A stretch of DNA of 64,000 nt from the NCBI GenBank assembly GCA_963664875.1, contig OY761611.1, positions 1,600,001-1,664,000 on the forward strand, written 5' to 3'. Within the stretch, counting starts at the first letter, position 1; each line of letters starts with the position of its first letter. Below the pieces are notes generated by a model. It worked only from the letters and a program-made list of their open reading frames with translations. It ran no database searches and had not been told where the DNA came from. The position numbers and the translations under genes are program-made. This document shows positions 8,751 through 64,000 of this stretch, in pieces. The stretch comes from Candidatus Kapaibacterium sp. (GTDB lineage: Bacteria; Bacteroidota; Ignavibacteria; Kapaibacteriales; UBA2268).

Positions 8751-8754
8751 TAAA

Positions 8755-9405
8755 TTGAAATATAATATTTCTGAAATATTTTATTCTGTGCAGGGCGAAG
8801 GCAGCAGAGCCGGTCGCCCTTGTGTATTTCTAAGGTTGCAGGGATGCGACTTGCGTTGCTCTTGGTGCGACACTCCATACGCTTTGGAAATCAAAGAAAC
8901 TGCCACTCTGATGAGTTTAGAAGAAATACTTGGGGCTATAGCAAAATTCGATTGCAACCTTATAAATATCACCGGCGGTGAACCTTTAATCCACAAAAAC
9001 ATAAATATAATAATAGATGCTCTTCTTGCAAGAGATTTCGAAGTTACAATCGAAACTAATGGACATGCTGATATATCTATAGCAAATGATGCAATCAGAA
9101 TAATGGATTTGAAGTGTCCCGATTCCGGAATGTCAAAATTCAATAATTTCAAAAATATAGATTATATTAGTAAAAAAGATGAAATCAAATTTGTTGTAGC
9201 TTCTAAAGCAGATTTCGACTGGGCAATGAAAATAATCGGGGACTACAATCTTGAAAGCAAAGCCGGTGATATTTTTATTTCACCCGTATTTGGTAAAATT
9301 GATTTGGAAGAGCTGGCTAATCTGGTAATTCATTCGGGCAAGAGAATACGAATGCAGCTTCAGATGCACAAGTTTATTTGGGATCCCGACAAACGTGGTG
9401 TATAA
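8755..9405 (+). CDS. queE: 7-carboxy-7-deazaguanine synthase (radical SAM)
   Basis: 'EIFYSVQGEG', 'GCDLRCSWCDT', 'ITGGEP', 'IETNG', 'LQMHKFIW'. Confidence 0.93.
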   Translation: MKYNISEIFYSVQGEGSRAGRPCVFLRLQGCDLRCSWCDTPYALEIKETATLMSLEEILGAIAKFDCNLINITGGEPLIHKNINIIIDALLARDFEVTIETNGHADISIANDAIRIMDLKCPDSGMSKFNNFKNIDYISKKDEIKFVVASKADFDWAMKIIGDYNLESKAGDIFISPVFGKIDLEELANLVIHSGKRIRMQLQMHKFIWDPDKRGV

Positions 9406-9425
9406 TTATATCCTCAGGTGTTTCT

Positions 9426-22622: not shown

Positions 22623-22676
22623 TTTATATATTATATAAGGTATTTTTCAAGTAAATATCGAGTTTTCAGATACATT

Positions 22677-22692
22677 TGCAATTATTTTGCCA
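22677..22692 (-). promoter_or_regulatory. Sigma-54 (-24/-12) promoter of flhA
   Basis: Minus strand TGGCAAAATAATTGCA matches GG-N10-GC, ~55 nt upstream of the flhA ATG. Confidence 0.75.
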
Positions 22693-22873
22693 ATTATCCT
22701 ATTTTGCTCGACATATAGGAAAATACTTCCCAAGCTACCAGCAAAAACACCTTATATTATATAACAAATTCTTACGAAGTTAATCCCTATTTATCCCTAC
22801 CTCCTGCCCTTCTGATCTCTTACTTTTATACTGAAAGTAATAAGACAGGAGTAGTATAGGATTCCGGTAGCTT

Positions 22874-46739: not shown

Positions 46740-47043
46740 AATGCTTCCCTTTATTATGTTAATTAAACTATTATATAAATGGGATACTTGTCTTTTTAAA
46801 CAGGTTTGATTATCCTGCTCATAAGGAAATACACAAGAAGTTTTTTTTGGTTGCAAACATATTTGATTTTTTTATCGGATTTATGCAATTCTATAAATAG
46901 CAGAGTCAGTATATATTATAGTACAGTAGAAAAAAGATTCTGATTTTGTATTTGTTATTCTTTGAACCTTCTTATTACTGAGGAGTATTACTTAATAACG
47001 AGTTGACATTCGTTTCGCTCGCTCCTTGAATAGAAAACAGATT

Positions 47044-49199: not shown

Positions 49200-49595
49200 A
49201 TTGACAACATAAAGTTCTATTACAATCTAATATTTACTATTAGAGACAGGATAATTGATGTGCAATAATGACATATTGGAGGAAAATCCTGCTATTGAGT
49301 GCATAAAATGACGCATAGAAGCCCTACATCGCTTAGTTAAAGTAGTTGTAAATGTGAAATTATTCGACGGCAGAATATATGTTTACAGCAAATATGATTT
49401 AGAGGCAAAAAAAAAAATGACACTATTTGAATTATTTTCTTGCTTATCATTTTCTGAATTACGATATTTGTAACGAATGAAATAGAAAATATTATTATGA
49501 CTATACTTTTGTAATTACAAATTATCAGCTTTGCAATTCAAAAAGAGTACTTACAAAATAGCCACTTTTTGTTATTTTTTTGAGGAGAAAACTTT

Positions 49596-51011
49596 ATGAG
49601 ATGGATTTTATTCTTGATTTTGTCTTTACCTTTGCTACAACTCGAATCTGCCGAATACAAATGGAATGTGATTAAAGACAATTCTGCAAATTTATTATCT
49701 GCTAATCATATAGCTTCTATTGATTCTAATAGTTATATAGTTGCCAAATCTAAAGGATATTCATTAAACAATTTCAGATATATAATAAAAACAGAAGATT
49801 ATGGTATGACGTGGGACACTCTCTTTTTTGAAGATATTCCTATGACTACTGATTTTGGTGACTATGCTATTACTGATTTAGTTGCTATAAATGACAAGCA
49901 CATTTTTGCTGCTTATGGATTTAACTCATATCTAAAATCTACAAATGGAGGAAAAGACTGGGAAGACTTTAGATTTCAAGATACATCATTTAACTTTTTA
50001 AGAATTACGCAAGATAATAATCTCATATTCTTAGGGGAAAACAGGACAGGAAAATATGCAGTTAGCAACGATTTTGGGAAATCATGGGAAGTTAAACATA
50101 TAAATTTTTCAATTGACTCGATAGATAAATATGATAACATTATGTATGATACTCCCTGGAGAAAAAAAGATACATTATATTCATTGATTTACCTTCAAAC
50201 CAAAGTGCCATTTATGTCATATTTGTCTTTTATTACTAACAGTTTATTGATTTACAGTGCTGATGACGGGCATTCCTGGCAACAGATGATTTATGTTGAA
50301 GAATTAGGAATCATGCGAAGTATGGCGATGTATGATAACAAAATCATTACTCAGGTCATCAATAATACTTTTCATCCTGAATTGGTAGTATCGCCCGATG
50401 ATGGATCGCTTGATACGTTTTGGGTCTCCAGTGCTCACAAAAGAATAGCTGCCTTTGATAAGACAGATGGCTCTTGTACATTCCTGACAGATTCTGTTGA
50501 TTTTAAAATGGGAAATGTAGTCGATATGCAATACTATGAAAATGGTTTGCTAAGTATGGCAACTGAAATCTATACTTATGTATCTAAGGATTACGGGGTT
50601 ACATGGGAGAAAGAAGAAACTAATGAGGAAAAACCAATATCAAAAGTGGCAAGACCATGTATCAATAAAGGTTTAATGATAGGAGACAATTACTATGCAA
50701 TCCTCGAACCTATCACTTCTGTTTTTAATAACCGAAGTTTGCTTCCGGAAACGATTTCTCTTTTCCCAAATCCAATATCCAAAAGTAACAAACTGCATAT
50801 CGAGTTCGAAGTAGAAATTCAGGGAGAATATTCCTTCAGTTTGACTTCTGCGGATGGTGCCAAATTTGATTTTAATCAGAAGTATTTCGCAGTTCCCGGC
50901 AACAACACAATATCTTTGGATATTCCGAAAGAAGTTGCTGCAGGAGCATATTTCCTAAGCATCGCAAAAGACGGAGAAATCCTTGCAGTGAAGCAATTAG
51001 TAGTACATTAA
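49596..51011 (+). CDS. Secreted Asp-box (BNR) beta-propeller-like protein with T9SS CTD, copy A
   Basis: Signal peptide; Asp-boxes TEDYGMTW, STNGGKDW, SNDFGKSW, SADDGHSW, SKDYGVTW; CTD 'LFPNP...AGAYFLSI...KQLVV'. Confidence 0.82.
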   Translation: MRWILFLILSLPLLQLESAEYKWNVIKDNSANLLSANHIASIDSNSYIVAKSKGYSLNNFRYIIKTEDYGMTWDTLFFEDIPMTTDFGDYAITDLVAINDKHIFAAYGFNSYLKSTNGGKDWEDFRFQDTSFNFLRITQDNNLIFLGENRTGKYAVSNDFGKSWEVKHINFSIDSIDKYDNIMYDTPWRKKDTLYSLIYLQTKVPFMSYLSFITNSLLIYSADDGHSWQQMIYVEELGIMRSMAMYDNKIITQVINNTFHPELVVSPDDGSLDTFWVSSAHKRIAAFDKTDGSCTFLTDSVDFKMGNVVDMQYYENGLLSMATEIYTYVSKDYGVTWEKEETNEEKPISKVARPCINKGLMIGDNYYAILEPITSVFNNRSLLPETISLFPNPISKSNKLHIEFEVEIQGEYSFSLTSADGAKFDFNQKYFAVPGNNTISLDIPKEVAAGAYFLSIAKDGEILAVKQLVVH

Positions 51012-51026
51012 ATATTAACCCTAACA

Positions 51027-51062
51027 ACTCCCTTTTTATAGATTGAGCTATAAAAAGGGAGT
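51027..51062 (+). terminator. Perfect 15-bp hairpin between the duplicated genes
   Basis: actccctttttatag-attgag-ctataaaaagggagt followed by a T-rich tract. Confidence 0.7.
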
Positions 51063-51090
51063 AATTTATTTTTTTTGAGGAGAAAACTTT

Positions 51091-52506
51091 ATGAGATGGA
51101 TTTTATTGTTGATTTTGACTTTACCTTTGCTACAACTTGAATCTGCCGAATACAAATGGAATGTGATTAAAGACAATTCTACAAATTTTTTATCTGTTAA
51201 TCATATAGCTTCTATTGATTCTAATAGTTATATAGTTGCCAAATCTAAAGGATATTCATTAAACAATTTCAGATATATAATAAAAACAGAAGATTATGGT
51301 ATGACGTGGGACACTCTCTTTGTTGAAGATATTCCTATGACTACTGATTTTATGGACTATGCTATCTCTGATTTAGTTGCAATAGATGACAAGCACATTT
51401 TTGCTGCTTATGGATTTAACTCCTATCTAAAATCTACAAATGGGGGAAAAGACTGGGAAGACTTTAGATTTCAAGATACCTCATTTAACTTTTTAAGAAT
51501 TACGCAAGATAATAATCTCTTATTCTTAGGGGAAAACAGGACAGGAAAATATGCAGTTAGCAATGATTTTGGGAAATCATGGGAAGTTAGGCACATCAAT
51601 TTTTCGATTGATTCGATAGATAAATATGATAACATTATGTATGATACTCCCTGGAGAAAAAAAGATACATTATATTCATTGATTTACCTTCAAACCAAAG
51701 TACCATTTATGTCAAATTTATCTTTTATTACCAACAGTTTGTTGATTCACAGCACTGATGACGGGCAATCCTGGCAACAGATGATTTATGTTGAAGAATT
51801 AGGAATCATGCCAAGTATGGCAATGTATGATAACAAAATCATTACTCAGGTCATCAATAATACTTTCCATCCTGAATTGGTAGTATCGCCCGATGATGGA
51901 TCGCTTGATACGTTTTGGGTCTCCAGTGCTCACAAAAGAATAGCTGCCTTTGATAAGACAGATGGCTCTTGTACATTCCTGACAGATTCTGTTGATTTTA
52001 AAATGGGAAATGTAGTCGATATGCAATATTATGAAAATGGTTTGCTAAGTATGGCAACTGAAATCTATACTTATGTATCTAAGGATTACGGTGTTACATG
52101 GGAGAAAGAAGAAACTAATGATAAAAAACCAATATCAAAAGTGGAAAGACCATGTATCAATAAAGGTTTAATGATAGGAGACAATTACTATGCAATCCTC
52201 GAACCTATCACTTCTGTTTTTAATAACCGAAATTTGCTTCCGGAAACGATTTCTCTTTTCCCAAATCCAATATCCAAAAGTAACAAACTGCATATCGAGT
52301 TCGAAGTAGAAAATCAGGGAGAATATTCCTTCAGTTTGACTGCTGCTGATGGTGCCAAATTTGATTTTAATCAGAAGTATTTCGCAGTTCCCGGCAACAA
52401 CACAATATCTTTGGATATTCCGAAAGAAGTTGCTGCAGGAGCATATTTCCTAAGCATCGCAAAAGACGGAGAAATCCTTGCAGTGAAGCAATTAGTAGTA
52501 CAGTAA
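51091..52506 (+). CDS. Secreted Asp-box beta-propeller-like protein with T9SS CTD, copy B
   Basis: ~95% identical to 49596..51011. Confidence 0.82.
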   Translation: MRWILLLILTLPLLQLESAEYKWNVIKDNSTNFLSVNHIASIDSNSYIVAKSKGYSLNNFRYIIKTEDYGMTWDTLFVEDIPMTTDFMDYAISDLVAIDDKHIFAAYGFNSYLKSTNGGKDWEDFRFQDTSFNFLRITQDNNLLFLGENRTGKYAVSNDFGKSWEVRHINFSIDSIDKYDNIMYDTPWRKKDTLYSLIYLQTKVPFMSNLSFITNSLLIHSTDDGQSWQQMIYVEELGIMPSMAMYDNKIITQVINNTFHPELVVSPDDGSLDTFWVSSAHKRIAAFDKTDGSCTFLTDSVDFKMGNVVDMQYYENGLLSMATEIYTYVSKDYGVTWEKEETNDKKPISKVERPCINKGLMIGDNYYAILEPITSVFNNRNLLPETISLFPNPISKSNKLHIEFEVENQGEYSFSLTAADGAKFDFNQKYFAVPGNNTISLDIPKEVAAGAYFLSIAKDGEILAVKQLVVQ

Positions 52507-52531
52507 TTTTTATAGAGTATAAATAACTTTG

Positions 52532-52570
52532 AAAAAGCTGTAGGCAGAAAACAACACTACAGCTTTTTTT
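52532..52570 (+). terminator. Intrinsic terminator
   Basis: aaaaagctgtag...ctacagcttttttt. Confidence 0.8.
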
Positions 52571-52650
52571 ATGGCTTTAAGCCTGTGAGTTGCTAATTTA
52601 ACCCAAAATGTCATTAGAAAAGCCAAATAAGTCATTATCTTGTTTCTTGG

Positions 52651-52847
52651 GAGGCTGTCTCATAAGTCAAAATTTGCAACATATTCTTGATGTTTGTAAG
52701 TTTTACCGACAGCTGAAGCAGTCGGTTGCACTTGTGTAACTCATTGCAACCGCATGCTTTAGCTTGCGGTAGAATAAAATATAATGTTTGTTTTTCCTCT
52801 ACTTTTACTAAAGAGTATGACAAAACTCAGACTTATGAGACAGTCCC
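52651..52847. mobile_element. MITE-like non-coding element with terminal inverted repeats and an internal REP-like pair
   Basis: ctgtctcataagtc (52655-52668) / gacttatgagacag (52830-52843) perfect 14-bp TIR; internal palindromes at 52705-52726 and 52749-52770. Confidence 0.7.
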
Positions 52848-53057
52848 TTCAAAGATACCATTGGTAAGTTTTTCTTAGATTTACGAATTGAATTCTTCTT
52901 TCCAAATTAAGTATCTTGCTAGTGTTTTGATTTCAAATGACAAATAAGGAATAATTGAACCGGTAAGCCCGGAGCAAAGAAGAAATATATTCTTAGAGCA
53001 TATCAACGTCTTTGTATATTTGTCTAATCACAATTTTCGGATTAGATTCGCTGAGTA

Positions 53058-54362
53058 TTATTCCTCTTCTTTATCTTTGATTTTGATAACTACAGTTTGG
53101 ATTTGACGTGTAGTTCGATCAACTATTCTTGCGAAAAACTCGTCGAATTCGATTATTTCACCTACTTCCGGTATTCTGCCTGTTTCTGATGTAATAAGCC
53201 CGCCAACTGTCTCATAATCTTCGCTTTCAGGCAAATCTATTGGCAGAAAGTCGTTTGCATCGTCGATTATCATCTGAGCCGAAATAGAATATTCTTTCTC
53301 AGAAAGCTTTTTGAGCAAAGGCAGCTCTTCGTCGTATTCGTCTTGGATTTCGCCGACTATTTCTTCTAATATATCTTCTAAAGTTACAAGACCTGCAGTA
53401 CCTCCAAATTCATTGAGAACAACTGCAATGTGCATCTTCCTTTTCTGAAGTGAACGCAAAAGGTCGTCTATCATGCTGTCTTCTGAGACAAAGTAAGGTT
53501 TCCTAAGGATATCTTTTAGTCTGAAATCTTCCGAATTTTTGAGCAAGCGAAGTATATCTTTTGCAAACACCATACCGATAATATTGTCTATATTGCCTTC
53601 ATATACGGGCATACGTGAGTACCCCTCTTCTATTATGGTATCGATAGTTTCGTTTTTGCTCATATTTACTTCTACAGCTATAATTTTATTGCGGGGTATC
53701 ATTATCTGCTTTACCTGAGTTTCCGCAAAATCAAAAACATTTTCTATCATTTTCTGCTCGGTGTCGTCTATCATGCCGCTTCTGCTACTTTCGGCAATTA
53801 TATATTTCAGCTCTTCGGGTGAGTGCATTTCCGAACCTTCCGATGGGGGTTTCACTCCAATAATACGCAGCATCATATTGGCAAAATTGTTTAGTACCCA
53901 TATCGCCGGTTTGAAAATAATATAAAACAGTCTCAATGGAAATGATACGCTAAGTGCCACCTGCTCTGAATATTGGATAGCAAGTGATTTTGGTGCAAGC
54001 TCTCCAAATACAATATGTAAAAATGTAATAAGTGCAAACGACAGTGGGAGTGCTATCTGATGTGCCGATTCCGGATTTAGATTTATGCCTACCAATTCGA
54101 GAGTGTTGATTACAATTTGGGCAACAACGCTTTCGCCTATCCAACCAAGCCCAAGCGAAGCAAGAGTGATCCCCAGCTGAGTAGCCGATAGGTAGCCATC
54201 GAGATGAGTTACCATGCTTTGTGCAATTTTTGCCATTTTGTTGCCTTCGCGGACTCTAAGTTCGATTTGCGAAGCTCGTACTTTGACAATGGCAAATTCT
54301 GCTGCCACAAAAAATCCGTTTAAAACTACGAAAAACAGGGTCAGGGCTATGTCAGATATCAT
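53058..54362 (-). CDS. Hemolysin family / CNNM-CBS-CorC domain protein
   Basis: 'NGFFVAAEFA', 'QLGITLASLGLGW', 'GELAPKS', 'YSRMPVY', 'EFGGTAGLVTLEDILEEIVGEIQDEYD'. Confidence 0.93.
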   Translation of the reverse strand: MISDIALTLFFVVLNGFFVAAEFAIVKVRASQIELRVREGNKMAKIAQSMVTHLDGYLSATQLGITLASLGLGWIGESVVAQIVINTLELVGINLNPESAHQIALPLSFALITFLHIVFGELAPKSLAIQYSEQVALSVSFPLRLFYIIFKPAIWVLNNFANMMLRIIGVKPPSEGSEMHSPEELKYIIAESSRSGMIDDTEQKMIENVFDFAETQVKQIMIPRNKIIAVEVNMSKNETIDTIIEEGYSRMPVYEGNIDNIIGMVFAKDILRLLKNSEDFRLKDILRKPYFVSEDSMIDDLLRSLQKRKMHIAVVLNEFGGTAGLVTLEDILEEIVGEIQDEYDEELPLLKKLSEKEYSISAQMIIDDANDFLPIDLPESEDYETVGGLITSETGRIPEVGEIIEFDEFFARIVDRTTRQIQTVVIKIKDKEEE

Positions 54363-54376
54363 ATTTATTTTTTCTT

Positions 54377-55123
54377 CTACTTCAAAAACAACTGTTTAGA
54401 TTTGAAAAAGACCTTCTTGTCCAAATGATAAGCAAAATATCTTGTAAAAAAGTCCACCAGCTCGCCGGCTTCTTTATCTGTCAGTTCGATTTCAGATATT
54501 TTGGAATGCTCTAATATAAAAATGTAATATAATTTTATATACGTTTCTTTTTCGATTGTAATATAATTGGAAGCAAAATTAGGCTCCTCGAGCAACCTCC
54601 CGCTATCAAGCGAAAATTTGCATAGGCTTTTGCCAAGGCGAAAGAGCTCTAAGTCTTCCAGAATATGCGGATCGAACTCGAAACCTAATTCAATAGCCAA
54701 ATGTATGCCAAAGCTGACAAAATAGGTGTACGGGGATTTGGGCAGGGAGTTCAAATCCTCCAAAATTAAGCGAAAGAAATCGAACAATTCGACATGGGGC
54801 GCGTTTAGTTCCTGAGTGATAAGCACAGATTCAGCTATCAGCAACGCCGCTCCTGTGTGGTCAAATGAGGTACTTATCTTTCTATATGGAACAATAATAT
54901 CAGCCTCAGCCAAGACGTGCAAATCCCTATTGGGTTTATGGTAAAATTTTATTTCTATATAGCTTAGTGGCTCGAGAGAAGCCGAAAATTTGGACTTCGC
55001 CTTGCGTACTCCTTTAGCGATAACAGTAATTTTGCCGTAATCCTTTGTGTACAAATTAACTATCTTGCTTGTGTCACCAAATTTTCTTGTATGCAATACT
55101 ATAGCTTCGGTTTTTTCAATCAT
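54377..55123 (-). CDS. recO: DNA repair protein RecO
   Basis: 'TEAIVL....GDTSKIV..YT...GKI..IAKGVRK.KSKF...LEP'. Confidence 0.9.
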   Translation of the reverse strand: MIEKTEAIVLHTRKFGDTSKIVNLYTKDYGKITVIAKGVRKAKSKFSASLEPLSYIEIKFYHKPNRDLHVLAEADIIVPYRKISTSFDHTGAALLIAESVLITQELNAPHVELFDFFRLILEDLNSLPKSPYTYFVSFGIHLAIELGFEFDPHILEDLELFRLGKSLCKFSLDSGRLLEEPNFASNYITIEKETYIKLYYIFILEHSKISEIELTDKEAGELVDFFTRYFAYHLDKKVFFKSKQLFLK

Positions 55124-55162
55124 GTGGCATTCTCATAATTTTAACGCAATATAAAATATTTC

Positions 55163-55193
55163 TTGCATAATTTTACAAAATAGTCTATTTTTG
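55163..55193 (+). promoter_or_regulatory. Bacteroidota-type promoter of first tRNA-Asn
   Basis: TTGCA-N18-TATTTTTG (TAnnTTTG -7 box); identical spacing upstream of the second copy. Confidence 0.6.
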
Positions 55194-55205
55194 TGTCGCT
55201 TTGAT

Positions 55206-55279
55206 TCCTGAGTAGCTCAGCTGGTTAGAGCATCTGACTGTTAATCAGAGGGTCCGCGGTTCAAGTCCGTGCTCAGGAG
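55206..55279 (+). tRNA. tRNA-Asn (GTT), copy 1
   Basis: Acceptor TCCTGAG/CTCAGGA, D-arm GCTC/GAGC, anticodon arm TCTGA-CTGTTAA-TCAGA, T-loop TTCAAGT; CCA not encoded. Confidence 0.97.
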
Positions 55280-55324
55280 CTTTAGTTCTAAAAAAAAAAA
55301 GATTTTCAAGTGCAAAAATATTAC

Positions 55325-55355
55325 TTGCACAATTAGAGAAAAACATTTATTTTTG
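55325..55355 (+). promoter_or_regulatory. Bacteroidota-type promoter of second tRNA-Asn
   Basis: TTGCA-N18-TATTTTTG. Confidence 0.6.
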
Positions 55356-55368
55356 TTTCTCTTTTGAT

Positions 55369-55442
55369 TCCTGAGTAGCTCAGCTGGTTAGAGCATCTGA
55401 CTGTTAATCAGAGGGTCCGCGGTTCAAGTCCGTGCTCAGGAG
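55369..55442 (+). tRNA. tRNA-Asn (GTT), copy 2
   Basis: Identical to copy 1. Confidence 0.97.
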
Positions 55443-55484
55443 CATTGAAAATCTATTTGATACTTATCCATGTGGTAAGTATAT

Positions 55485-55558
55485 TCCTGAGTAGCTCAGC
55501 TGGTTAGAGCATCTGACTGTTAATCAGAGGGTCCGCGGTTCAAGTCCGTGCTCAGGAG
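55485..55558 (+). tRNA. tRNA-Asn (GTT), copy 3
   Basis: Identical to copy 1. Confidence 0.97.
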
Positions 55559-55559
55559 C

Positions 55560-55591
55560 AAAAAGCTAATCCAAACGGGTTAGCTTTTTTT
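55560..55591 (+). terminator. tRNA cluster terminator
   Basis: aaaagctaatcc-aaac-gggttagctttttt. Confidence 0.85.
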
Positions 55592-55768
55592 GTTTTTAGA
55601 AACTCTTCTCAGTATGTCTGTGATTTCTGCCACTTATTCCCACTCATTCTCTATACCAATTTTTTCAAATCACCAATTTCTTGGCTCTGCTCATTTGTTT
55701 TCCGGCAAATGAAAAAGCAGAATTTATAAACGATATTTACTATTGTTAGCAAATCCAGTTAGCTGAAC

Positions 55769-55825
55769 AAAAAAATGGCTCTAATTGCATCTAATACCAG
55801 AAGTAAAAACAATTTGGAGCCATTT
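55769..55825 (-). terminator. Terminator of the T9SS paralogue array
   Basis: aaaatggctctaattg ... caatttggagccatttt inverted repeat with an A-run on its left. Confidence 0.6.
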
Positions 55826-55885
55826 ATATGCTTTTTGCAAACATAGGATAATTATATTTTATCAGATAATCGAAACAGGTACAAT

Positions 55886-57304
55886 CTATTGTATTACCAC
55901 CTTCTGAGCAGCTACAAACTGACCTTCTTTATAGATAGAAAGTATATATATTCCGGAAGCCAGCTCTGTGCTTAGATTGAGTGAAACTCTATTTAGTCCT
56001 GCGGTAAGTGTTTCCGTTTGCTTAATATTGCACTCCGATCCATCGAGTGCTGTGAGCTGCAGTGTATATTTGCCTGCCTCGTTTGCCTTGATATCTATTG
56101 TTATTTCATCATCTTTGCCTGCCGGATTCGGATAAACTGCTATTTCTGATGTCAATGGATTATGCTCGCTTACTGAGGTTGCGGGTTCGAGGGTGGCGAT
56201 AATACCTATCCCTACGGCTATTCCCTTCGAATGACTAACTCTTTCTACTTTGTCAAAAGAAGCTGTTTTTGAATCATTCTTCACTCTTAACTCTTCCTCC
56301 CAAGTATCTCCGTTATCAGTAGAAATATAGGCTCCCGAACGCATGTTCAAGCAGATAATATTGCCAAATTTTCTTAGGCTATTGAGACGATTCATTTTCA
56401 TTGAATTTGAATCTGCAAGGACAACCATTTCTCCTGATTCCCTGTTTATTTTTACAATCTTATAGTGAGGGGTTGCAGTGTAAACTGTATCTATTTCGCC
56501 TTTGGAGTTTTTTACAAGTACTTCTTCAAATGTGTATTCAGCAGTTTGAGTAAATATTGACTCCTGATCTACCACAAAATATTCTGAAAGCTCAACTTTT
56601 CTATTTGTATAAAACTGTTTCCAGGTCTCTCCATTGTCCGAACTCTCAAGGTAAACATTATGAATATAATTATTAAAATTGGACACGAAATTAGCTTTAT
56701 CAAAGAAAAAAATAGATTTATAGATTTTATCCTGAAAGAAAACCGGTTTACCTACCTTTATTTTTTCGTATATTTCTAACGAATCAATAGAATATAGAGG
56801 CTCTAATATTTCCCATGTATTTCCCAGGTCAGTGCTTTTTGCATACTTATCCATAGCACCAGCTATAAAGACAATGCTATCTCTCGCAGAGATTTTGTTA
56901 TAAGTAAATGATTCGTCAGAAAGTTTTGATTCTTTCCAGGTAATTCCCTTATCTTCGGATTTGAGCAGAGACATATAACCACAAAGGGCTATAATATTGC
57001 TTTTATCTAAATATTTAATATCTGTAAAGAAATAGTTAGCAGCTTCAGGGTATCCCTTGTCTGTAATATCTTCAAAAAAAAGTGTATCCCACGTTTTGCC
57101 ATAGTCTGTAGTTTGTTCAATCATCCTATAATAAATAAAATCGAATCCTGAACTTGCACAAATATAAGTGGAGCTATCCAGAGCAGAAATAAAATGCCCA
57201 GCCATTGGATTATAGTCCCATTTTTCAGAAACATTCCATTGGTAGTCTGAAGCGGAAAGTATGTAGGACATACAAAACAAAAGAATAAAAGAGAAGTAAC
57301 GCAT
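55886..57304 (-). CDS. Secreted Asp-box beta-propeller-like protein with T9SS CTD (array member 1)
   Basis: Signal peptide MRYFSFILLFC..., Asp-boxes TTDYGKTW/STDLGNTW/SSDNGETW/STDNGDTW, CTD 'VYPNPA...SGIYILSI'. Confidence 0.82.
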   Translation of the reverse strand: MRYFSFILLFCMSYILSASDYQWNVSEKWDYNPMAGHFISALDSSTYICASSGFDFIYYRMIEQTTDYGKTWDTLFFEDITDKGYPEAANYFFTDIKYLDKSNIIALCGYMSLLKSEDKGITWKESKLSDESFTYNKISARDSIVFIAGAMDKYAKSTDLGNTWEILEPLYSIDSLEIYEKIKVGKPVFFQDKIYKSIFFFDKANFVSNFNNYIHNVYLESSDNGETWKQFYTNRKVELSEYFVVDQESIFTQTAEYTFEEVLVKNSKGEIDTVYTATPHYKIVKINRESGEMVVLADSNSMKMNRLNSLRKFGNIICLNMRSGAYISTDNGDTWEEELRVKNDSKTASFDKVERVSHSKGIAVGIGIIATLEPATSVSEHNPLTSEIAVYPNPAGKDDEITIDIKANEAGKYTLQLTALDGSECNIKQTETLTAGLNRVSLNLSTELASGIYILSIYKEGQFVAAQKVVIQ

Positions 57305-57682
57305 AGTAATCCTATATAGTTGAGTAAATGAAATCATTGTGCATTTTAAAACGATGCCAAATATTTATTCGGAAATAACCACCTTCTGAGCAGCTACAAA
57401 CAGCCCTTCTTTATAGATAGTAAGTATATATATTCCGGAAGCCAGCTCTGTGCTTAGATTGAGTGAAACTCTATTTAGTCCGGCGGAAAGTGTTTCCGTT
57501 TGCTTAATATTGCACTCCGAACCATCGAGTGCTGTGAGCTGCAGTGTATATTTGCCTGCCTCGTGTGCCTCAAAGTCTATTGTTATTTCATCATCTTTGC
57601 CTGCCGGATTCGGATAAACTGCTATTTCTGATGTCAATGGATTATGCTCGCTTACTGAGGTTGCGGGTTCGAGGGTGGCGAT
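57233..57682 (-). repeat. ~450-bp direct repeat (second copy 60385-60835) spanning CTD + intergenic region + next signal peptide
   Basis: 'tgagtaaatgaaatcattgtgcatttt(t)aaaacgatgccaaatatttat' and 'gtatgtaggacatacaaaacaaaagaataaa' occur in both copies. Confidence 0.92.
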
Positions 57683-58783
57683 ATATCCGGGACCTACCAT
57701 CATGCCCTGAGAAACAGAGACTCTATCTATGCCGCTGAAAAAATGAGTTTTTCCTGAAGAACTATAGAATGCTTCTTCTTCCCACGATATTCCAAAATCC
57801 GTTGAAATATATGAACTTGTTATAGTGCTCAAGCATAAAGTGTTAGCAAATTTGTCCATAGACCTTATTGCAGGCCAATAATAAGATGTTGAATCCGAGA
57901 GGATTGTTTTTTCTCCGGAGAACTTGTCAATTTTTATAATTTCATAATATCCGGTCGCAAAATGTGCGGTATCAATATTCCCATCCGGATCTTTCACAAT
58001 TGTAGTATCAAAAATATTATATCCTGCTTGCCCCCAGATAAATTGTTCATCAACAGAAAAAACAGGACTCAATTCATACTCATTAACAAAGAACAAACTT
58101 TCCCAGCTTTCCCCTAAATCTGTACTGAAAAGAAACAAACAATCAGTAAAATAGTTTAAGTTTGAAATAAACGGTACTTTTGTCTGCAAATACTTAATGG
58201 TATAAAGCGTATCTTGATACATAACCGGAGTCAATGTAAACGTATTATCATAAGTATAATTAGAATCTGTAACAATATCAACACTCTTTAGCTCCCAAGT
58301 TCTTCCCATGTCTTTACTAATGACAAATTGATTATTTACTCCGCCTAACATAATTATGCTGTCTTTAGAATAAATATTGCTAAAATGAACAGTAGAGTCA
58401 AAATAAGATGTATCAATCCAAGATTGCCCCCCATTAGTGGTCTGAAGAATTTGTTGATTCCCACATAAGGCAATAATATTATCTTTATCCAAGAATGTGA
58501 CATCATAAATAAAATGTCGCTTGTAATCAAAACTTTCTTCTATTGTTGAGGCATATAAGGTATCCCATGTTTTTCCTTTATTGAAGGTCCAAAGCAATGC
58601 CCTATATTTGTTATTGTTTGAGGTAGAGAAAGATCTTACGTACGAGTTGGAATCAAGTGCAGAAATACGATCAATTGATAAATCGTTAGAATTACTTACT
58701 CTTTCGATATTCCATTGATATTTACTCTCTGCATATAACATACTATTCAGCAACAAAGATATAATTACGATTATATAAAACAT
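57365..58783 (-). CDS. Secreted Asp-box beta-propeller-like protein with T9SS CTD (array member 2)
   Basis: Signal peptide, Asp-boxes SKDMGRTW/STDLGESW/STDFGISW, constant CTD. Confidence 0.82.
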   Translation of the reverse strand: MFYIIVIISLLLNSMLYAESKYQWNIERVSNSNDLSIDRISALDSNSYVRSFSTSNNNKYRALLWTFNKGKTWDTLYASTIEESFDYKRHFIYDVTFLDKDNIIALCGNQQILQTTNGGQSWIDTSYFDSTVHFSNIYSKDSIIMLGGVNNQFVISKDMGRTWELKSVDIVTDSNYTYDNTFTLTPVMYQDTLYTIKYLQTKVPFISNLNYFTDCLFLFSTDLGESWESLFFVNEYELSPVFSVDEQFIWGQAGYNIFDTTIVKDPDGNIDTAHFATGYYEIIKIDKFSGEKTILSDSTSYYWPAIRSMDKFANTLCLSTITSSYISTDFGISWEEEAFYSSSGKTHFFSGIDRVSVSQGMMVGPGYIATLEPATSVSEHNPLTSEIAVYPNPAGKDDEITIDFEAHEAGKYTLQLTALDGSECNIKQTETLSAGLNRVSLNLSTELASGIYILTIYKEGLFVAAQKVVISE

Positions 58784-59028
58784 AACAATTCCTTTTTTAA
58801 TAAACGAAGCTTGTGTTGCGATGCATTCTATTTTGTCTCGGTTGATAGCCCAACCGTAACCTGATTGAAACGCATCTATAACTTGTTTTTAAGACTAAGC
58901 ACTCAGCAAAACACACCTATGCTCAAAGTGTCTTGAACAAACCGTACGTCAGTAACAACAACAGAAAAGATGTAAATACCAATGCTTTATAGTGTATTTA
59001 CGTTGTACTCCATGCAATACTAAACAAT

Positions 59029-60456
59029 CTATTGTATTACCACCTTCTGAGCAGCTACAAACAGCCCTTCTTTATAGATAGAAAGTATATATATGCCTGA
59101 AGCCAGCTCTGCGCTTAGATTAAGTGAAACTCTATTTAGTCCGGTGGAAAGTGTTTCCGTTTGCTTAATATTGCACTCCGATCCATCGAGTGCTGTGAGC
59201 TGCAGTGTATATTTGCCTGACTCGTGTGCCTCAAAGTCTATTGTTATTTCATCATCTTTGCCTGCCGGATTCGGATAAACTGCTATTTCTGATGTCAAGG
59301 GATTATGCTCGCTTACTGAGGTTGCGGGTTCGAGGGTAGCGAAACAGCTCAAACCAACTGCCATACCTTTTGTACTCGTCGTTCTTGCAAGATCAAAAAA
59401 GAGCGAAACTTCTCCTTCTTTTGTGATTCTTTTCTCTTCGAACCAAGATTTTCCGAAATCTGAAGATTTGTATGATTTTGTATTTGCGGAAGCCATTATG
59501 TCGGAATTTATAATATCCAAATTGCTTATAGAAGGCATGTTTAAAACAGCAGTGTCAACAATTGTCCGATTAGTACCGTCACTCAAATCGACTGCCATAA
59601 TTTTTCTGTGCGGAGTAGCAACAAACAGCGTATCTACACCATCGCCATTAGGCTTGTTGACTAAAACATCTTTAAATGTATAATCAGTAGCCTGCAAAAA
59701 CAATTCTCCATTATGAATTACAAAATCTGTGCTAACTTCAAACTCATCTAACAGCAAAAGATTCTCCCACGTTTCTCCACTATCAGTACTTTTCAAATAC
59801 AAACAATGCTTGTGGTATGACAATGTGGACATAAACTCAATTTCATCTAACAAAAAAACAGGGAGGTATAGGTTTCCGTCAAACTCTTTAGGAGGAAAAA
59901 TAGAAATGTTCTCATATTTATCAACTGAATCAATCTCAATTTGAATTTGCTGCAAATTCCAACTATTCCCTTTATCTCTGCTAATTCCTATATACTCTGA
60001 TGATGCCCCACCTACAAAAACATTATCTCCGTAGCTCATTATTTTTGTATAGTTGAATGATGGGTCAAAGTAATTTGTATCAATCCACGATTTGCCGCCA
60101 TCAGAAGTTCTTACTAAGCCATTGTACCCATAGACTGCAATTATGTTGTCTAAATCCAAAAAAGCTATGTCAGTAAACATAAAAAATAAGTAATCAGAAT
60201 ATTCATTTCCCATTTCCTTAAAATAGATTGTATCCCAAGATTGACCATAATCGTTGGTTAATTCAATAAATCTAAAAGCCGGTGGGTTAGTGTATGTTCT
60301 AGTTATAGCATAATTTAAAGAATCATAAGCTGAGATTTGTCCCATTGAGACTGGATTAGAATCGTCTTGAAGTTTAAATTTAAAATTCCATTGGTAGTCG
60401 GAAGCGGTAAGTATGTAGGACATACAAAACAAAAGAATAAAGGAGAAGTAACGCAT
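59029..60456 (-). CDS. Secreted Asp-box beta-propeller-like protein with T9SS CTD (array member 3)
   Basis: Signal peptide nearly identical to member 1, Asp-boxes TNDYGQSW/TSDGGKSW/STDSGETW/SSDFGKSW, constant CTD. Confidence 0.82.
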   Translation of the reverse strand: MRYFSFILLFCMSYILTASDYQWNFKFKLQDDSNPVSMGQISAYDSLNYAITRTYTNPPAFRFIELTNDYGQSWDTIYFKEMGNEYSDYLFFMFTDIAFLDLDNIIAVYGYNGLVRTSDGGKSWIDTNYFDPSFNYTKIMSYGDNVFVGGASSEYIGISRDKGNSWNLQQIQIEIDSVDKYENISIFPPKEFDGNLYLPVFLLDEIEFMSTLSYHKHCLYLKSTDSGETWENLLLLDEFEVSTDFVIHNGELFLQATDYTFKDVLVNKPNGDGVDTLFVATPHRKIMAVDLSDGTNRTIVDTAVLNMPSISNLDIINSDIMASANTKSYKSSDFGKSWFEEKRITKEGEVSLFFDLARTTSTKGMAVGLSCFATLEPATSVSEHNPLTSEIAVYPNPAGKDDEITIDFEAHESGKYTLQLTALDGSECNIKQTETLSTGLNRVSLNLSAELASGIYILSIYKEGLFVAAQKVVIQ

Positions 60457-60518
60457 AGATGAACCTGTATAATTGAGTAAATGAAATCATTGTGCATTTT
60501 TAAAACGATGCCAAATAT

Positions 60519-61949
60519 TTATCCGGAAATTACCACCTTCTGAGCAGCTACGAACTGACCTTCTTTATAGATAGAAAGTATATATATTCCGGAAGCCAGC
60601 TCTGAGCTTAGATTGAGTGAAACTCTATTTAGTCCGGCGGCAAGTGTTTCCGTTTGCTTAATATTGCTCTCTGAACCATCGAGTGCTGTGAGCTGCAGTG
60701 TATATTTGCCTGACTCGTTTGCCTTGATATCTATTGTTATTTCATCATCTTTGCCTGCCGGATTCGGATAAACTGCTATTTCTGATGTCAAGGGATTATG
60801 CTCGCTTACTGAGGTTGCGGGTTCGAGGGTAGCGAATTTCCCACTCCCCACCATGAAGCCTTTCGACATAGAGACTCTATCAAAATCATTAATCATACCG
60901 GCAGTTTTATTATTTGAATTCCAAACTTCTTTTACCCATGTATTCCCATAATCAGACGAATAAAATGACTGAAAAAAAGTAGAAATGAATAAGTAATCGT
61001 CAAACTTGTTCATATTAGTTATGCTTCCACAAGTAAAAGAGACAGAGTCAGTAATGACATCCATTTTACTATTGTGTCTGTTTATTTTTACCATTTGCCA
61101 ATGCGGAGTTGGCGATAATGTAGTATCGAGTCCTGTGCCGTCTGGTTTATAAACTAAAACAGTATCGAATGTATAATCAACTGATTGGGTATAAAAATAA
61201 GTATCATCAATTACATAATTTATTGATAGGCCGAGGTCATCAATTTTAAACATCTTTTGCCAATTTTTGCCTTTATCGGTACTATACATAAATAAATTAT
61301 CAGTCAGTAATTCCAACTGAGACTTAAAAGGGACTCTATGCCTCAAATGAACTAACGTATAAAGGGTATCGTTTCTCATCTTAGGAGTATAAATTATAGT
61401 ATCATCATATTGTCTCTCTTGGTTAAGCTCTATATTAATCGCCTGAAGCCTCCAAGTTTTGCCTAAATCATTACTAATTCCCATGAATTTATCTGTAGCA
61501 CTTGCAACTATAACTAAGCTGTCATACGAGTTGATTTCGTTATAAGCAAAGGAATCATCAAAATAGCTTGTATCTATCCATGACTTCCCACCATCGGTAC
61601 TTTGCAAAAAATTGTTAAAGCCACATATTGCTAAAATGTTATCCTTATCCAGATATTTGATATCAGTGATTACATATTTGTATATTTCCCAAGAATTATA
61701 ATTCAAATCTTCATAAAAGAGAGTATCCCAAGTTTGCCCATAATCATCTGTTTTTTCAATACATCTTGAATATGGATAGCTATATGTAGTTCTACTAACA
61801 ACTGCATGATTTTGATCAAGGCAGGATACCCTATTGACAGAAGCTGGGAGCACTTTTTCAGAACTCAGATGTGTAAACTTCCATTCGTAATCACTACAAA
61901 ATAGAGCAGAACAAGAGATAATAAATATAAGTAAAACTACACTCTTCAT
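60519..61949 (-). CDS. Secreted Asp-box beta-propeller-like protein with T9SS CTD (array member 4)
   Basis: Signal peptide, Asp-boxes TDDYGQTW/STDGGKSW/SNDLGKTW/SSDYGNTW, constant CTD. Confidence 0.82.
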   Translation of the reverse strand: MKSVVLLIFIISCSALFCSDYEWKFTHLSSEKVLPASVNRVSCLDQNHAVVSRTTYSYPYSRCIEKTDDYGQTWDTLFYEDLNYNSWEIYKYVITDIKYLDKDNILAICGFNNFLQSTDGGKSWIDTSYFDDSFAYNEINSYDSLVIVASATDKFMGISNDLGKTWRLQAINIELNQERQYDDTIIYTPKMRNDTLYTLVHLRHRVPFKSQLELLTDNLFMYSTDKGKNWQKMFKIDDLGLSINYVIDDTYFYTQSVDYTFDTVLVYKPDGTGLDTTLSPTPHWQMVKINRHNSKMDVITDSVSFTCGSITNMNKFDDYLFISTFFQSFYSSDYGNTWVKEVWNSNNKTAGMINDFDRVSMSKGFMVGSGKFATLEPATSVSEHNPLTSEIAVYPNPAGKDDEITIDIKANESGKYTLQLTALDGSESNIKQTETLAAGLNRVSLNLSSELASGIYILSIYKEGQFVAAQKVVISG

Positions 61950-62147
61950 GATATTGTCTCAATAAATAAGAATAAATTTGCTTTATCTACACACTAATAG
62001 TTAGAAGGTTCATATATAAATTTTTTTTGCATTTATGTTTAGAGTATTTTGTATCTCAATTCTCTATTACCATTTTTTAGCAAAAAGTTGTATCTTTGCT
62101 AATTAGGATTATGCTATTTATAATTTATCAATATATAGGTTTTTATC

Positions 62148-63500
62148 ATGGCTGATTCAAGATATAAATCGTTTAAGTACATCGAAGACCTTTATAAATT
62201 CGAAGGCGAAGTAGTTACTTTACGAGGTTGGCTTTATAACAAAACAGGCAAAGGCAAACTTCAATTCTTGCTCATGCGCGACGGCACAGGAGTGGCACAA
62301 TGTATATTGTTCAAACCAAATTTGGGCGAAGAAAAATTTGCTGAAGCTAAATCGCTTACTCAGGAATCTTCCTTCGAAGTAACCGGCAAAGTGGTTGCCA
62401 ACGAAAAAGCTCCGGGCGGATTCGAAATAGATGTGGAAGACTTCAAAGTATTTCAGATTGCAGAAGAGTACCCTATCACTCCTAAAGAGCATGGCGATTC
62501 TTTTTTAATTGAACACCGCCACCTTTGGTTGCGTTCTAAGCGCCAACATGCTATAATGAGAGTAAGAGCAGCAGTTGTAAAAGCAATTCGCGATTTCTTC
62601 GATGGCAACGGTTTCAAACTTATGGATTCTCCAATTTTGACTCCAAGCGCTTGCGAAGGCACTTCTACTTTGTTTGAGACTAACTATTTCGATCTTGGCA
62701 AAGCATATTTGTCTCAGTCAGGCCAGCTATACGCAGAAGCATCCGCTATGGCTCTCGGTAAAGTATATACATTCGGCCCTACGTTCCGTGCTGAGCAATC
62801 AAAAACAAGAAAGCATCTAACTGAGTTTTGGATGGTAGAACCTGAAATGGCTTTCTTCGATTTGAATGACGATATGGATTTGGCGGAAGATTTGGTAGAG
62901 TATATTGTTCACTATGCTGTCAAAACCTGCCAGCGCGAGCTAATTGATCTAGAAAGAGACATCACTAAATTAGAAAAAGTTGTTCGTCCTTTCAATCGCA
63001 TGAGCTACGACGACGCTGTAGATTGGTTGCAACAAAATGATATTCCTATTATCCGCAAAGTAGATGGGCAGGAAGTAAAAGAGCAGTTCCCTTGGGGTGA
63101 AGACCTTGGCACACCACAAGAAGAAGCAATAATGGAACAGTTCGACAAACCATGTATAATCCACCGCTATCCGTCTGAAGTGAAAGCATTTTACATGAAA
63201 CGCGACCCACAAAATGACAAAGTGGTATTGGCTATGGATATGCTTGCTCCTGAAAAGGCAGGAGAAATCATTGGTGGCAGTCAAAGAGAAGACAATATAG
63301 ACTTACTTTTGGAAAGAATCAGACATCATGAGCTTCCGGAAGAAGATTACAAATGGTATTTGGATTTGCGCCGCTACGGCTCAGTCCCTCACTCAGGATT
63401 TGGTCTTGGAGTAGAGCGTGTAGTCAAATGGATTACCGGTGCTAAGCACATCAGAGAGGTAATTCCAATGCCACGTATGATCCACAGGATTATCCCATAA
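62148..63500 (+). CDS. asnS: Asparagine--tRNA ligase
   Basis: OB-fold 'RDGTG', 'AYLSQSGQLYAE', 'FGPTFRAEQSKTRKHLTEFWMVEPE', 'GEIIGGSQRE', 'YGSVPHSGFGLGVER'; TATCTTTG promoter box near 62091. Confidence 0.96.
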   Translation: MADSRYKSFKYIEDLYKFEGEVVTLRGWLYNKTGKGKLQFLLMRDGTGVAQCILFKPNLGEEKFAEAKSLTQESSFEVTGKVVANEKAPGGFEIDVEDFKVFQIAEEYPITPKEHGDSFLIEHRHLWLRSKRQHAIMRVRAAVVKAIRDFFDGNGFKLMDSPILTPSACEGTSTLFETNYFDLGKAYLSQSGQLYAEASAMALGKVYTFGPTFRAEQSKTRKHLTEFWMVEPEMAFFDLNDDMDLAEDLVEYIVHYAVKTCQRELIDLERDITKLEKVVRPFNRMSYDDAVDWLQQNDIPIIRKVDGQEVKEQFPWGEDLGTPQEEAIMEQFDKPCIIHRYPSEVKAFYMKRDPQNDKVVLAMDMLAPEKAGEIIGGSQREDNIDLLLERIRHHELPEEDYKWYLDLRRYGSVPHSGFGLGVERVVKWITGAKHIREVIPMPRMIHRIIP

Positions 63501-63523
63501 TCAAATAATTTGCTACAAGAGAC

Positions 63524-63562
63524 AAAGCAGTATTTCTAAGAAAAGAGATACTGCTTTTTTTT
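63524..63562 (+). terminator. asnS terminator
   Basis: aaagcagtatttct...agagatactgctttttttt. Confidence 0.8.
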
Positions 63563-63880
63563 AAACCTTTAACAATGGTTTTGAGTTAAAACTAAATTGA
63601 AATACTTGTCAAAATTCGAGTTCGAATGTAAATCAAAAATTCTTTACAGATCATTTTATAATATGATAATAGCTATCGATTACAAATTTCACTCTATAGA
63701 TAACCTCTTGTATATGGGTTTGTCATATTGAATTACATATCAAGAGATTATATATAGTTTCTAATTTTATCTTTATTTTTATTATATTGAGATTTTGTAT
63801 TAGTAACTGATATAGTTATTTATTTATAGAAGTTTTTATAATAATGCAAAATCAAAAAATCAGTAATTGTAGGAGTACTA

Positions 63881-64000
63881 ATGAGATTAGCGATTCTTCT
63901 TCTCGGATTATTCAGTTTTGTGAACTTACAGGCTGAAAATTATTATTGGGTTGGAGGCTCAGGAGATTGGGCTGAATATTTTTATCATTGGGCATACGAA
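63881..64000 (+). CDS. N-terminus of a secreted surface protein (truncated by the window edge)
   Basis: AGGAG RBS; MRLAILLLGLFSFVNLQAENYYWVGGSGDW..., a signal peptide followed by the 'YWVGGSG.W' start seen in large FCB surface proteins. Confidence 0.7.
   Translation, partial: MRLAILLLGLFSFVNLQAENYYWVGGSGDWAEYFYHWAYE

Follow-up and report, generated by a model that had tools for sequence, protein, structure and literature searches.

Probable concerted evolution of secretion modules in a tandem array of predicted type IX cargo genes from Candidatus Kapaibacterium

How do neighbouring genes come to share near-identical ends, and even the non-coding DNA between them, around bodies that are only about half identical? 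This question is raised by a 64,000-nucleotide (nt) stretch of a Candidatus Kapaibacterium sp. genome (contig OY761611.1, positions 1,600,001 to 1,664,000; hereafter the window, in whose own coordinates positions are given). Four tandem genes, A to D, occupy the minus strand at 55886-61949 and are transcribed in the order D, C, B, A. Each encodes a putative signal peptide, a beta-propeller core and a C-terminal sorting domain (CTD) of the type IX secretion system (T9SS). A sequence-only reading of this DNA had described a ~450-bp repeat at 57233 and 60385 and had proposed that gene cores are replaced as cassettes between conserved flanks by double crossover. We consider a different process the probable one: the secretion modules of neighbouring old paralogs would have evolved in concert, through gene conversion and/or unequal crossover.

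The repeat itself is real, and its edges are slightly wider than first described. Two junction blocks, at 57233-57686 and 60385-60840 on the minus strand, match at 94-96% over CTD coding sequence, stop codon, non-coding spacer and the signal peptide of the next gene. The first comprises the CTD of B (57368-57686), the stop and a 60-nt spacer (57305-57367) and the signal peptide of A up to the motif DYQWN (57233-57304); the second comprises the CTD of D, the stop and spacer (60457-60518) and the signal peptide of C, again up to DYQWN (60385-60456). Global alignment confirmed that the block holds these three parts, as had been claimed, with 299/318 identical positions and one gap column in the CTD coding part, 59/63 and two gap columns in the stop and spacer, and 69/72 in the signal peptide. 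Similarity was said to stop after DYQWN, and identity indeed collapses within a few bases on both sides of the blocks (9/14 identical positions immediately upstream, and 21/28 plus 12 gap columns immediately downstream). Repeat finding recovered the same structure as two-copy families D4 (57230-57306 and 60382-60458, 95%) and D6 (57311-57351 and 60464-60504, 93%), at a spacing of 3152/3153, and as a four-copy family D1 (55862-56161, 57344-57643, 59005-59304 and 60498-60797), whose copies are 88-94% identical to the reference copy.

The repeat is thus two-copy, as originally reported, only in its stop, spacer and signal-peptide part, which is found at the B-to-A and D-to-C junctions; the CTD part is common to all four genes, as a block of ~320 nt with 93-95% nt identity. 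The 5' border of this block is the same in A to D, at the codon before the motif ATLEP (56204, 57686, 59347 and 60840). At the other end, homology of the B and D CTDs runs on across the spacer and takes in the following gene's signal peptide, and A and C have in common 20 nt that run to just past the stop. Their CTD blocks (55881-56204 in A, 93-95% identical to the other three, and 59024-59347 in C, both on the minus strand) therefore include 5 nt beyond the stop that are common only to these two genes. The description of variable bodies bracketed on both sides by conserved DNA holds for A and C only: the 5' flanks of B and D are not conserved, and the sequences upstream of these two genes show no similarity. 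As direct repeats, the CTD blocks lie 1.48-1.66 kb apart and the long junction blocks 3.15 kb apart. A 38-nt CTD pattern matches four sites exactly, and a 48-nt signal-peptide pattern matches two with 0-1 mismatches; 100 shuffles for each gave an expectation of 0.

The divergence of the cores is of another order. The A-D cores are ~50% identical in DNA, their amino acid (aa) identities all fall at 33-36%, and the proportion of synonymous sites that differ (pS) is saturated, at 0.72-0.76, in all six pairs. In the same six pairs the synonymous divergence (dS) of the CTD is 0.107-0.154, and that of the signal peptide, between A and C, is 0.17. The CTD blocks, together with the stop, spacer and signal peptide at two junctions, have recently been made near-identical, with dS about 0.1. 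The sequence-only reading had proposed comparing spacer identity with core dS and had dismissed simple duplication plus drift; the dismissal stands, as the core is saturated next to a spacer with 59/63 identities, and the low core dS that would have counted against the proposal is absent. Neither duplication plus drift nor purifying selection accounts for a pattern in which the spacer and the silent sites equal the coding flanks in conservation and the cores are saturated. A residual duplication of a two-gene unit was considered and rejected: the core identities are flat, with no pairing of A with C or of B with D, and the regions upstream of B and D are dissimilar.

Two further paralogs lie nearby on the plus strand, E (49596-51011), with a CTD of its own type (35-37% aa identity to the A-D CTD), and its tandem duplicate F (51091-52506). 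Here the whole gene has recently been duplicated (49575-51017 and 51070-52512, 96.6% nt identity over 1443 nt), and the dS of the CTD, 0.015, is again below that of the core, 0.11. A 36-nt palindrome (51027-51062) lies between E and F.

We compared the histories of cores and CTDs across related genomes. A family scan of one-genome-per-species contigs, a collection that does not include the window's own genome, returned 13 loci. Eight of these (L001-L008) are clear relatives from metagenome-assembled genomes (MAGs) labelled Candidatus Kapaibacterium, Chlorobiota or uncultured bacterium; the other 5/13 (L009-L013) are weak or distant matches and were left out of all counts. In the maximum-likelihood core tree (21 rows; the prefix W_ marks a window gene), clades run across genomes. 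The D-type clade joins W_D, L003_7438, L004_9986 and L006_9986 (four genomes, support 100/100), the E-type clade joins W_E/F, L004_8446 and L006_11475 (three genomes, 100/100), and the A-type clade joins W_A, L001 and a fragment in L002 (three genomes, 100/99). In the CTD tree (19 rows), clades follow the genome instead: window A-D (100/100), the L003 pair (100/99) and L004 with L006 (97/96). As lineages, the propeller cores predate the split from the related genomes.

The D-type gene shows the discordance most directly. Its core is 87%, 72% and 58% identical in aa to the orthologs in L003, L004 and L006, with dS 0.54 against L003, whereas the window-type CTD has 43% aa identity to the CTD of the L003 array, a value measured on the ortholog's neighbour gene, and the W_D CTD has 39% to that of L004_9986. 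The own CTD of the L003 ortholog lies beyond an insertion sequence (IS) and outside the identity matrix; in the tree it groups with the CTD of its neighbour. DNA homology between W_D and all three orthologs ends at 60808, just inside the CTD block, which indicates that the flanks were overwritten or homogenised. In the CTD tract, then, within-genome paralogs are more alike than between-genome orthologs, the signature of concerted evolution according to the relevant part of PMC2720389, and the homogeneity takes in silent and non-coding positions and ends at sharp borders, as expected of gene conversion. In a set of 5.8 billion proteins, the window-type CTD occurs on only four protein clusters, those of B, of D and of the orthologs of A and C; since all are array members or their orthologs, the homogenisation is local. 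Among eight candidate shorter fragments with a window-type CTD, none was significant.

Homogenisation of neighbours recurs in three other arrays from independent assemblies. The L004 pair has cores at 31% aa identity and CTDs at 96% nt identity; the L006 pair has cores at 34% aa, CTDs at 95% nt and signal peptides at 97% nt; and the L003 pair has cores at 38% aa and CTDs with 245/265 identical nt, starting at the same FATLxP border. GC-biased gene conversion was considered as a cause and rejected, as there is no consistent GC signature across homogenised and other CTDs. In A-D the GC fraction of the CTD is 0.43-0.45 against 0.33-0.34 in the core, yet CTDs that have no near-identical partner are also raised (L005 0.41, L007 0.42, E/F 0.39), and in the homogenised L003 CTD the GC fraction at third codon positions is 0.22.

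We propose the following mechanism. Non-reciprocal homologous recombination would copy secretion modules from one paralog onto its neighbour, through RecA-type gene conversion or unequal exchange between misaligned sister chromosomes, so that cores would stay apart while the secretion module of one gene is replaced by that of the next. The cores would escape exchange because their ~50% DNA identity is too low to recombine. Exchanges that end within the propeller would probably yield misfolded chimeras and be purged by selection, and such selection would place tract ends at the same domain borders in independent lineages. Once homogenised, the blocks, as direct repeats, could allow genes to be lost, gained or re-ordered, or a core to be replaced by a diverged allele. 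The earlier suggestion that the conserved blocks serve as recombination substrates is in this respect borne out, and excision or amplification of a 3.15-kb two-gene unit, which it also foresaw, is possible in principle.

The CTD block contains suggestive rather than strong evidence of mosaicism. Its informative sites fall into all three partitions of the four genes (AB|CD, 4 sites; AC|BD, 6; AD|BC, 8), and sites of like partition are clustered, with 11/17 adjacent pairs alike (permutation p 0.004, 18 sites). A metagenomic ortholog of C, P0005, matches C at 282/291 positions in the core and 94/103 in the CTD, and its CTD carries both A/D-like and B-like states.

Several points weigh against concerted evolution as we propose it, or against parts of its evidence. 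The priming of the first transfer, between CTDs that would then have been only ~50% identical, is not accounted for. Microhomology anchors at the block edges were considered and rejected: in 33 non-homogenised pairs, exact runs of at least 9 nt fall at the motifs TWDT and GxYIL, not at DYQWN or ATLEP. Conversion of the spacer and signal peptide requires homology on the far side, which the A and C cores do not offer, so the 5' flank shared by A and C may be due either to conversion or to core replacement or double crossover. The clustering of CTD sites falls to p 0.19 when a 5-site cluster at the 3' end is removed (13 sites), and the few incompatible sites could be homoplasy. Finally, the metagenome contigs that encode P0005 (1436 nt) and P0001 (2102 nt) may be chimeric across repeats.

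Of the rival explanations, replacement of the cores themselves deserves the most attention, and we regard it as possible but unlikely as the general process. It holds that a resident CTD-spacer-signal-peptide segment and the downstream CTD act as handles between which the A and C cores were swapped by double crossover, from family members or other strains. That A and C have both their 5' and their 3' flanks in common fits this account; B and D have no common 5' flank, and a two-site model does not need a CTD common to all four genes. The window D, E and A cores, moreover, have orthologs elsewhere that carry different CTDs, so in those genes it was the flanks that changed, not the cores. Support for core replacement also comes from L004 and L006, whose flanks are ~92% identical in nt (flank-gene dS 0.06-0.41). 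L004 has the order E-D, and L006 the order D-E with two additional family genes upstream. Despite the swapped flanking cores, a 472-nt CTD-spacer-signal-peptide junction (L004 9595-10066, L006 11084-11555) is kept at 88%. The D core itself differs at dS 1.57 (62% aa identity), against 0.31 for the signal peptide and 5' flank before it and 0.28 for the CTD after it; clear breakpoints near 10160 and 11050 delimit this divergent part in both loci, and L004_D groups with W_D and L003_D rather than with L006_D (99/96), contrary to the genome relationship. We read these observations as signs that conserved blocks let cores be re-ordered and replaced. Because L006 is a short-read assembly, its gene order and D core could be partly an effect of assembly or of strain chimerism across the 340-nt repeats. 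The alternative cores and rearrangements that the sequence-only reading asked for thus do exist in related genomes, and its cassette replacement has support there from the changed order and the divergent core; in the window the direction is mostly the reverse, with the flanks changed.

The remaining explanations fare worse. Programmed variation, whether as silent-cassette antigenic variation, a shufflon- or integron-type site-specific system or a retroelement, is highly improbable. In silent-cassette systems such as pilE/pilS, msp2 and vlsE, conserved DNA flanks variable segments and guides homologous exchange, and the conserved flanks round variable bodies seen here resemble such arrangements. 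Those systems pair one expression site with truncated, promoterless donors, however, and all four copies in the array are complete genes with start codon, signal peptide and CTD. A site-specific array is also poorly matched: we found no inverted repeats in 50000-64000, no direct repeats bracketing the array other than tRNA copies, no Rfam matches other than three tRNAs, and no recombinase or reverse transcriptase among the scanned neighbours (RecO, a CNNM/CBS transporter, AsnRS and an M3 peptidase); the sole tyrosine-recombinase-like open reading frame (ORF) is ~49 kb away and far under its cut-off. That the pattern arises from collapsed or chimeric repeats in the assembly is scarcely credible. 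Short metagenome contigs of the relatives do break at the repeats, as where the L001 contig ends inside a CTD, and those encoding P0001 and P0005 are only 2102 and 1436 nt long; in the window, by contrast, the four copies differ at 5-7% of sites, each with its own pattern, a 3.83-Mb contig is the recorded source of B and D, and the pattern is also present in three other independent assemblies. Purifying selection alone, by which the T9SS and Sec machineries would constrain CTD and signal peptide with no recombination, has in its favour that both are functional modules and that the ratio of nonsynonymous to synonymous divergence (dN/dS) in the CTD is low. It is refuted by equal conservation at silent positions, where dS is about 0.1 and the cores are saturated, and in the non-coding spacer (59/63). 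In addition, the CTD of E and F, from the same genome, has only 35-37% identity to that of A-D, and orthologous cores bear different CTDs in other genomes.

Concerted evolution is already known in gene families, and the closest parallels to the array that we propose are the Helicobacter pylori bab/sab/hom paralogs and the Tannerella forsythia KLIKK proteases. According to sections of a review (PMC3960876), babA/babB, sabA/sabB/hopQ and homA/homB have near-identical 5' and 3' ends and a divergent middle, within-strain similarity of the 3' segment of the Hop/Hom genes has been read as concerted evolution, and intragenomic gene conversion yields chimeras (there citing Pride and Blaser 2002). The likeness lies in conserved ends round divergent middles. 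The H. pylori loci are dispersed, while the window genes are tandem, and they encode outer-membrane beta-barrel adhesins of a pathogen for which conversion was shown experimentally, while the array is known from sequence alone. What is homogenised in the window is a T9SS sorting domain with the intergenic spacer and the next signal peptide, in an uncultured environmental lineage.

The KLIKK proteases are described in part of PMC4404884 as the products of six T9SS cargo genes, grouped into two clusters, that combine different bodies with a nearly identical CTD and for which the authors suggest an origin by fusion to sequences coding for a signal peptide, an N-terminal extension and a C-terminal extension. 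Clustered cargo genes with a near-identical CTD on differing bodies are what A-D present as well. From that description, the KLIKK bodies belong to unrelated catalytic classes, while the window bodies are homologous propellers; the passages concerned contain no DNA-level or gene-conversion analysis and no repeat of a spacer and signal-peptide junction. The window proteins also lack the KLIKK end motif, as A and C end in VVIQ and B and D in VVISE/G, so the likeness is one of pattern, not of membership. Against generic concerted evolution, whose signature the array shows in sharply bounded tracts, the difference is that only the targeting modules are homogenised and that, in at least three lineages, the border of the tract falls at that of the domain. 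Among the top-ranked full-text matches of a literature search, which lay outside subscription literature, no paper joined concerted evolution, gene conversion and type IX secretion.

The window array and its three counterparts provide a DNA-level case, in four independent assemblies, in which T9SS sorting domains, in some instances together with the adjoining spacer and signal peptide, evolve in concert within tandem cargo arrays while their passengers keep deep histories. For annotation and phylogeny, CTD similarity would then mark membership of the same array rather than a shared protein family history, and whole-protein trees would mislead. For assembly, repeats of 320-450 nt can break or scramble short-read contigs. 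For biology, the process would offer a simple route for reshuffling secreted or surface repertoires. We also entertain, with considerable doubt, a stronger idea: that the CTD-spacer-signal-peptide junction is more than a by-product of conversion and is maintained as a portable linker, through which T9SS cargo arrays become recombinationally modular. If so, cores could be permuted, lost, gained and replaced by diverged alleles within and between Kapabacteria populations, a recombinase-free diversification of surface or secreted proteins. The junction kept at 88% between L004 and L006, their E-D and D-E orders, and the D core at dS 1.57 between flanks at about 0.3 are compatible with this idea.

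The predicted products of all six genes follow one plan: the N-terminus is hydrophobic, the core (~345 aa) gives BNR/Asp-box and Ycf48-like matches, and a CTD forms the C-terminal part. Gene A (55886-57304, 472 aa) is taken to start at the MRYF ATG at 57304, as a longer ORF, to 57337, is not frame-conserved in C. Gene B (57365-58783, 472 aa) has a signal peptide of its own, unrelated to that of A; gene C (59029-60456, 475 aa) has one that is 96% identical in nt to that of A; and gene D (60519-61949, 476 aa) again has its own. All four are on the minus strand and share the architecture of A. The signal peptides are putative: the A-D N-termini are visibly hydrophobic, and the structural model of A places a low-confidence helix at residues 2-15. 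The CTDs of A-D qualify as T9SS type A (~75-100 aa, with curated models above cut-off), as all four match PF18962 at 35.8-37.7 bits (cut-off 27) and TIGR04183 at 32.5-37.1 bits (cut-off 23). E and F score 20.0-20.2 bits with PF18962, under the Pfam cut-off, and have no TIGR04183 match. For the core, PF02012 (BNR) is above cut-off in 5/6 family proteins (C is under it, at 19.7 bits) and PF14870 in 2/6. An AlphaFold (AF2) model of A, built from a 22-row family alignment, has a mean predicted local distance difference test (pLDDT) score of 85.2; in it, an all-beta propeller is followed by a linker of low confidence (377-384) and a tail that forms a beta-sandwich. Its best compact Foldseek matches in the Protein Data Bank (PDB) are the Ycf48 entries 5ojp, 5ojr and 2xbg, at target-normalised template-modelling (TM) scores of 0.68-0.71. 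From these models, the A-F cores are predicted to be BNR/Asp-box Ycf48-like propellers, seven-blade-like in A-D, with no catalytic role implied.

The family is rare. It is represented by 7 of 1.84 billion cluster representatives at E <= 1e-30, and by 13 proteins at E <= 1e-5 among 7999 candidates scored in the 5.8-billion set. No component of the T9SS machinery was found among 31 window ORFs in an NCBIfam scan or among 6 in a Pfam scan.

The spacers suggest that D-C and B-A form two transcription units: 60-62 nt separate the genes within each pair, the C-to-B spacer (58784-59028, minus strand) is unique and 245 nt long, and downstream of A a hairpin followed by a run of seven T (55769-55823, minus strand) resembles a terminator in sequence and predicted fold. 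Two such operons would account for the long junction blocks lying at just the two short spacers. A sigma-70-like TTGGCA-N16/17-AATGAT occurs at the same place in both junction spacers (57333-57360 and 60486-60514) and is only a 9/12 match. A promoter scan returned 34 promoter-like sites against 29.7 +/- 5.0 in shuffles, not above chance, and a terminator scan 2 terminator-like sites against 3.6 +/- 1.8.

The related loci carry a number of further features. In L003, an IS element (8548-10000) splits the D-type ortholog just before the last core codons and the CTD; its ORF (8603-9991, 462 aa) matches DUF772 and DDE_Tnp_1. In L001 (9634-10912), the reading frame of the A-type ortholog breaks down where the core meets the CTD, and the contig stops within a CTD sharing 97% identity with that of L002_9938. 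In L002 only a 202-aa stump of the A-type gene (9072-9701) is left, and a full family gene lies downstream of it. L005 (11506-11649) and L007 (9892-10036) each hold an orphan copy of a family 5' end, ~145 nt long and 97-98% identical to 9982-10126, right after that gene; it precedes unrelated reverse-strand genes and may be what remains of a second copy that was lost. A terminator-like 45-nt hairpin with T-run flanks the arrays in L004 (7002-7044 and 11455-11499) and L006 (5613-5657 and 12930-12973). The FlhA gene (20515-22697) is the only non-family stretch of the window that matches the DNA of a fetched locus (77.7%, L002 11503-13685), and it gives a rough genome distance between the window and the L002 MAG.

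Other CTD-bearing ORFs place these arrays in cargo-rich neighbourhoods. L003 (6385-7410), L004 (7316-8449) and L006 (6006-7040) each have an unrelated Por_Secre_tail ORF shortly upstream of the array, and in the window an unrelated CTD-bearing ORF of 1000 aa (43854-46856) lies ~9 kb from the array. Directly downstream of the window array, three tRNA-Asn(GTT) genes whose tRNA sequences are identical stand in tandem (55206-55559), and the asparaginyl-tRNA synthetase gene (62148-63500) lies on the opposite side of the array.

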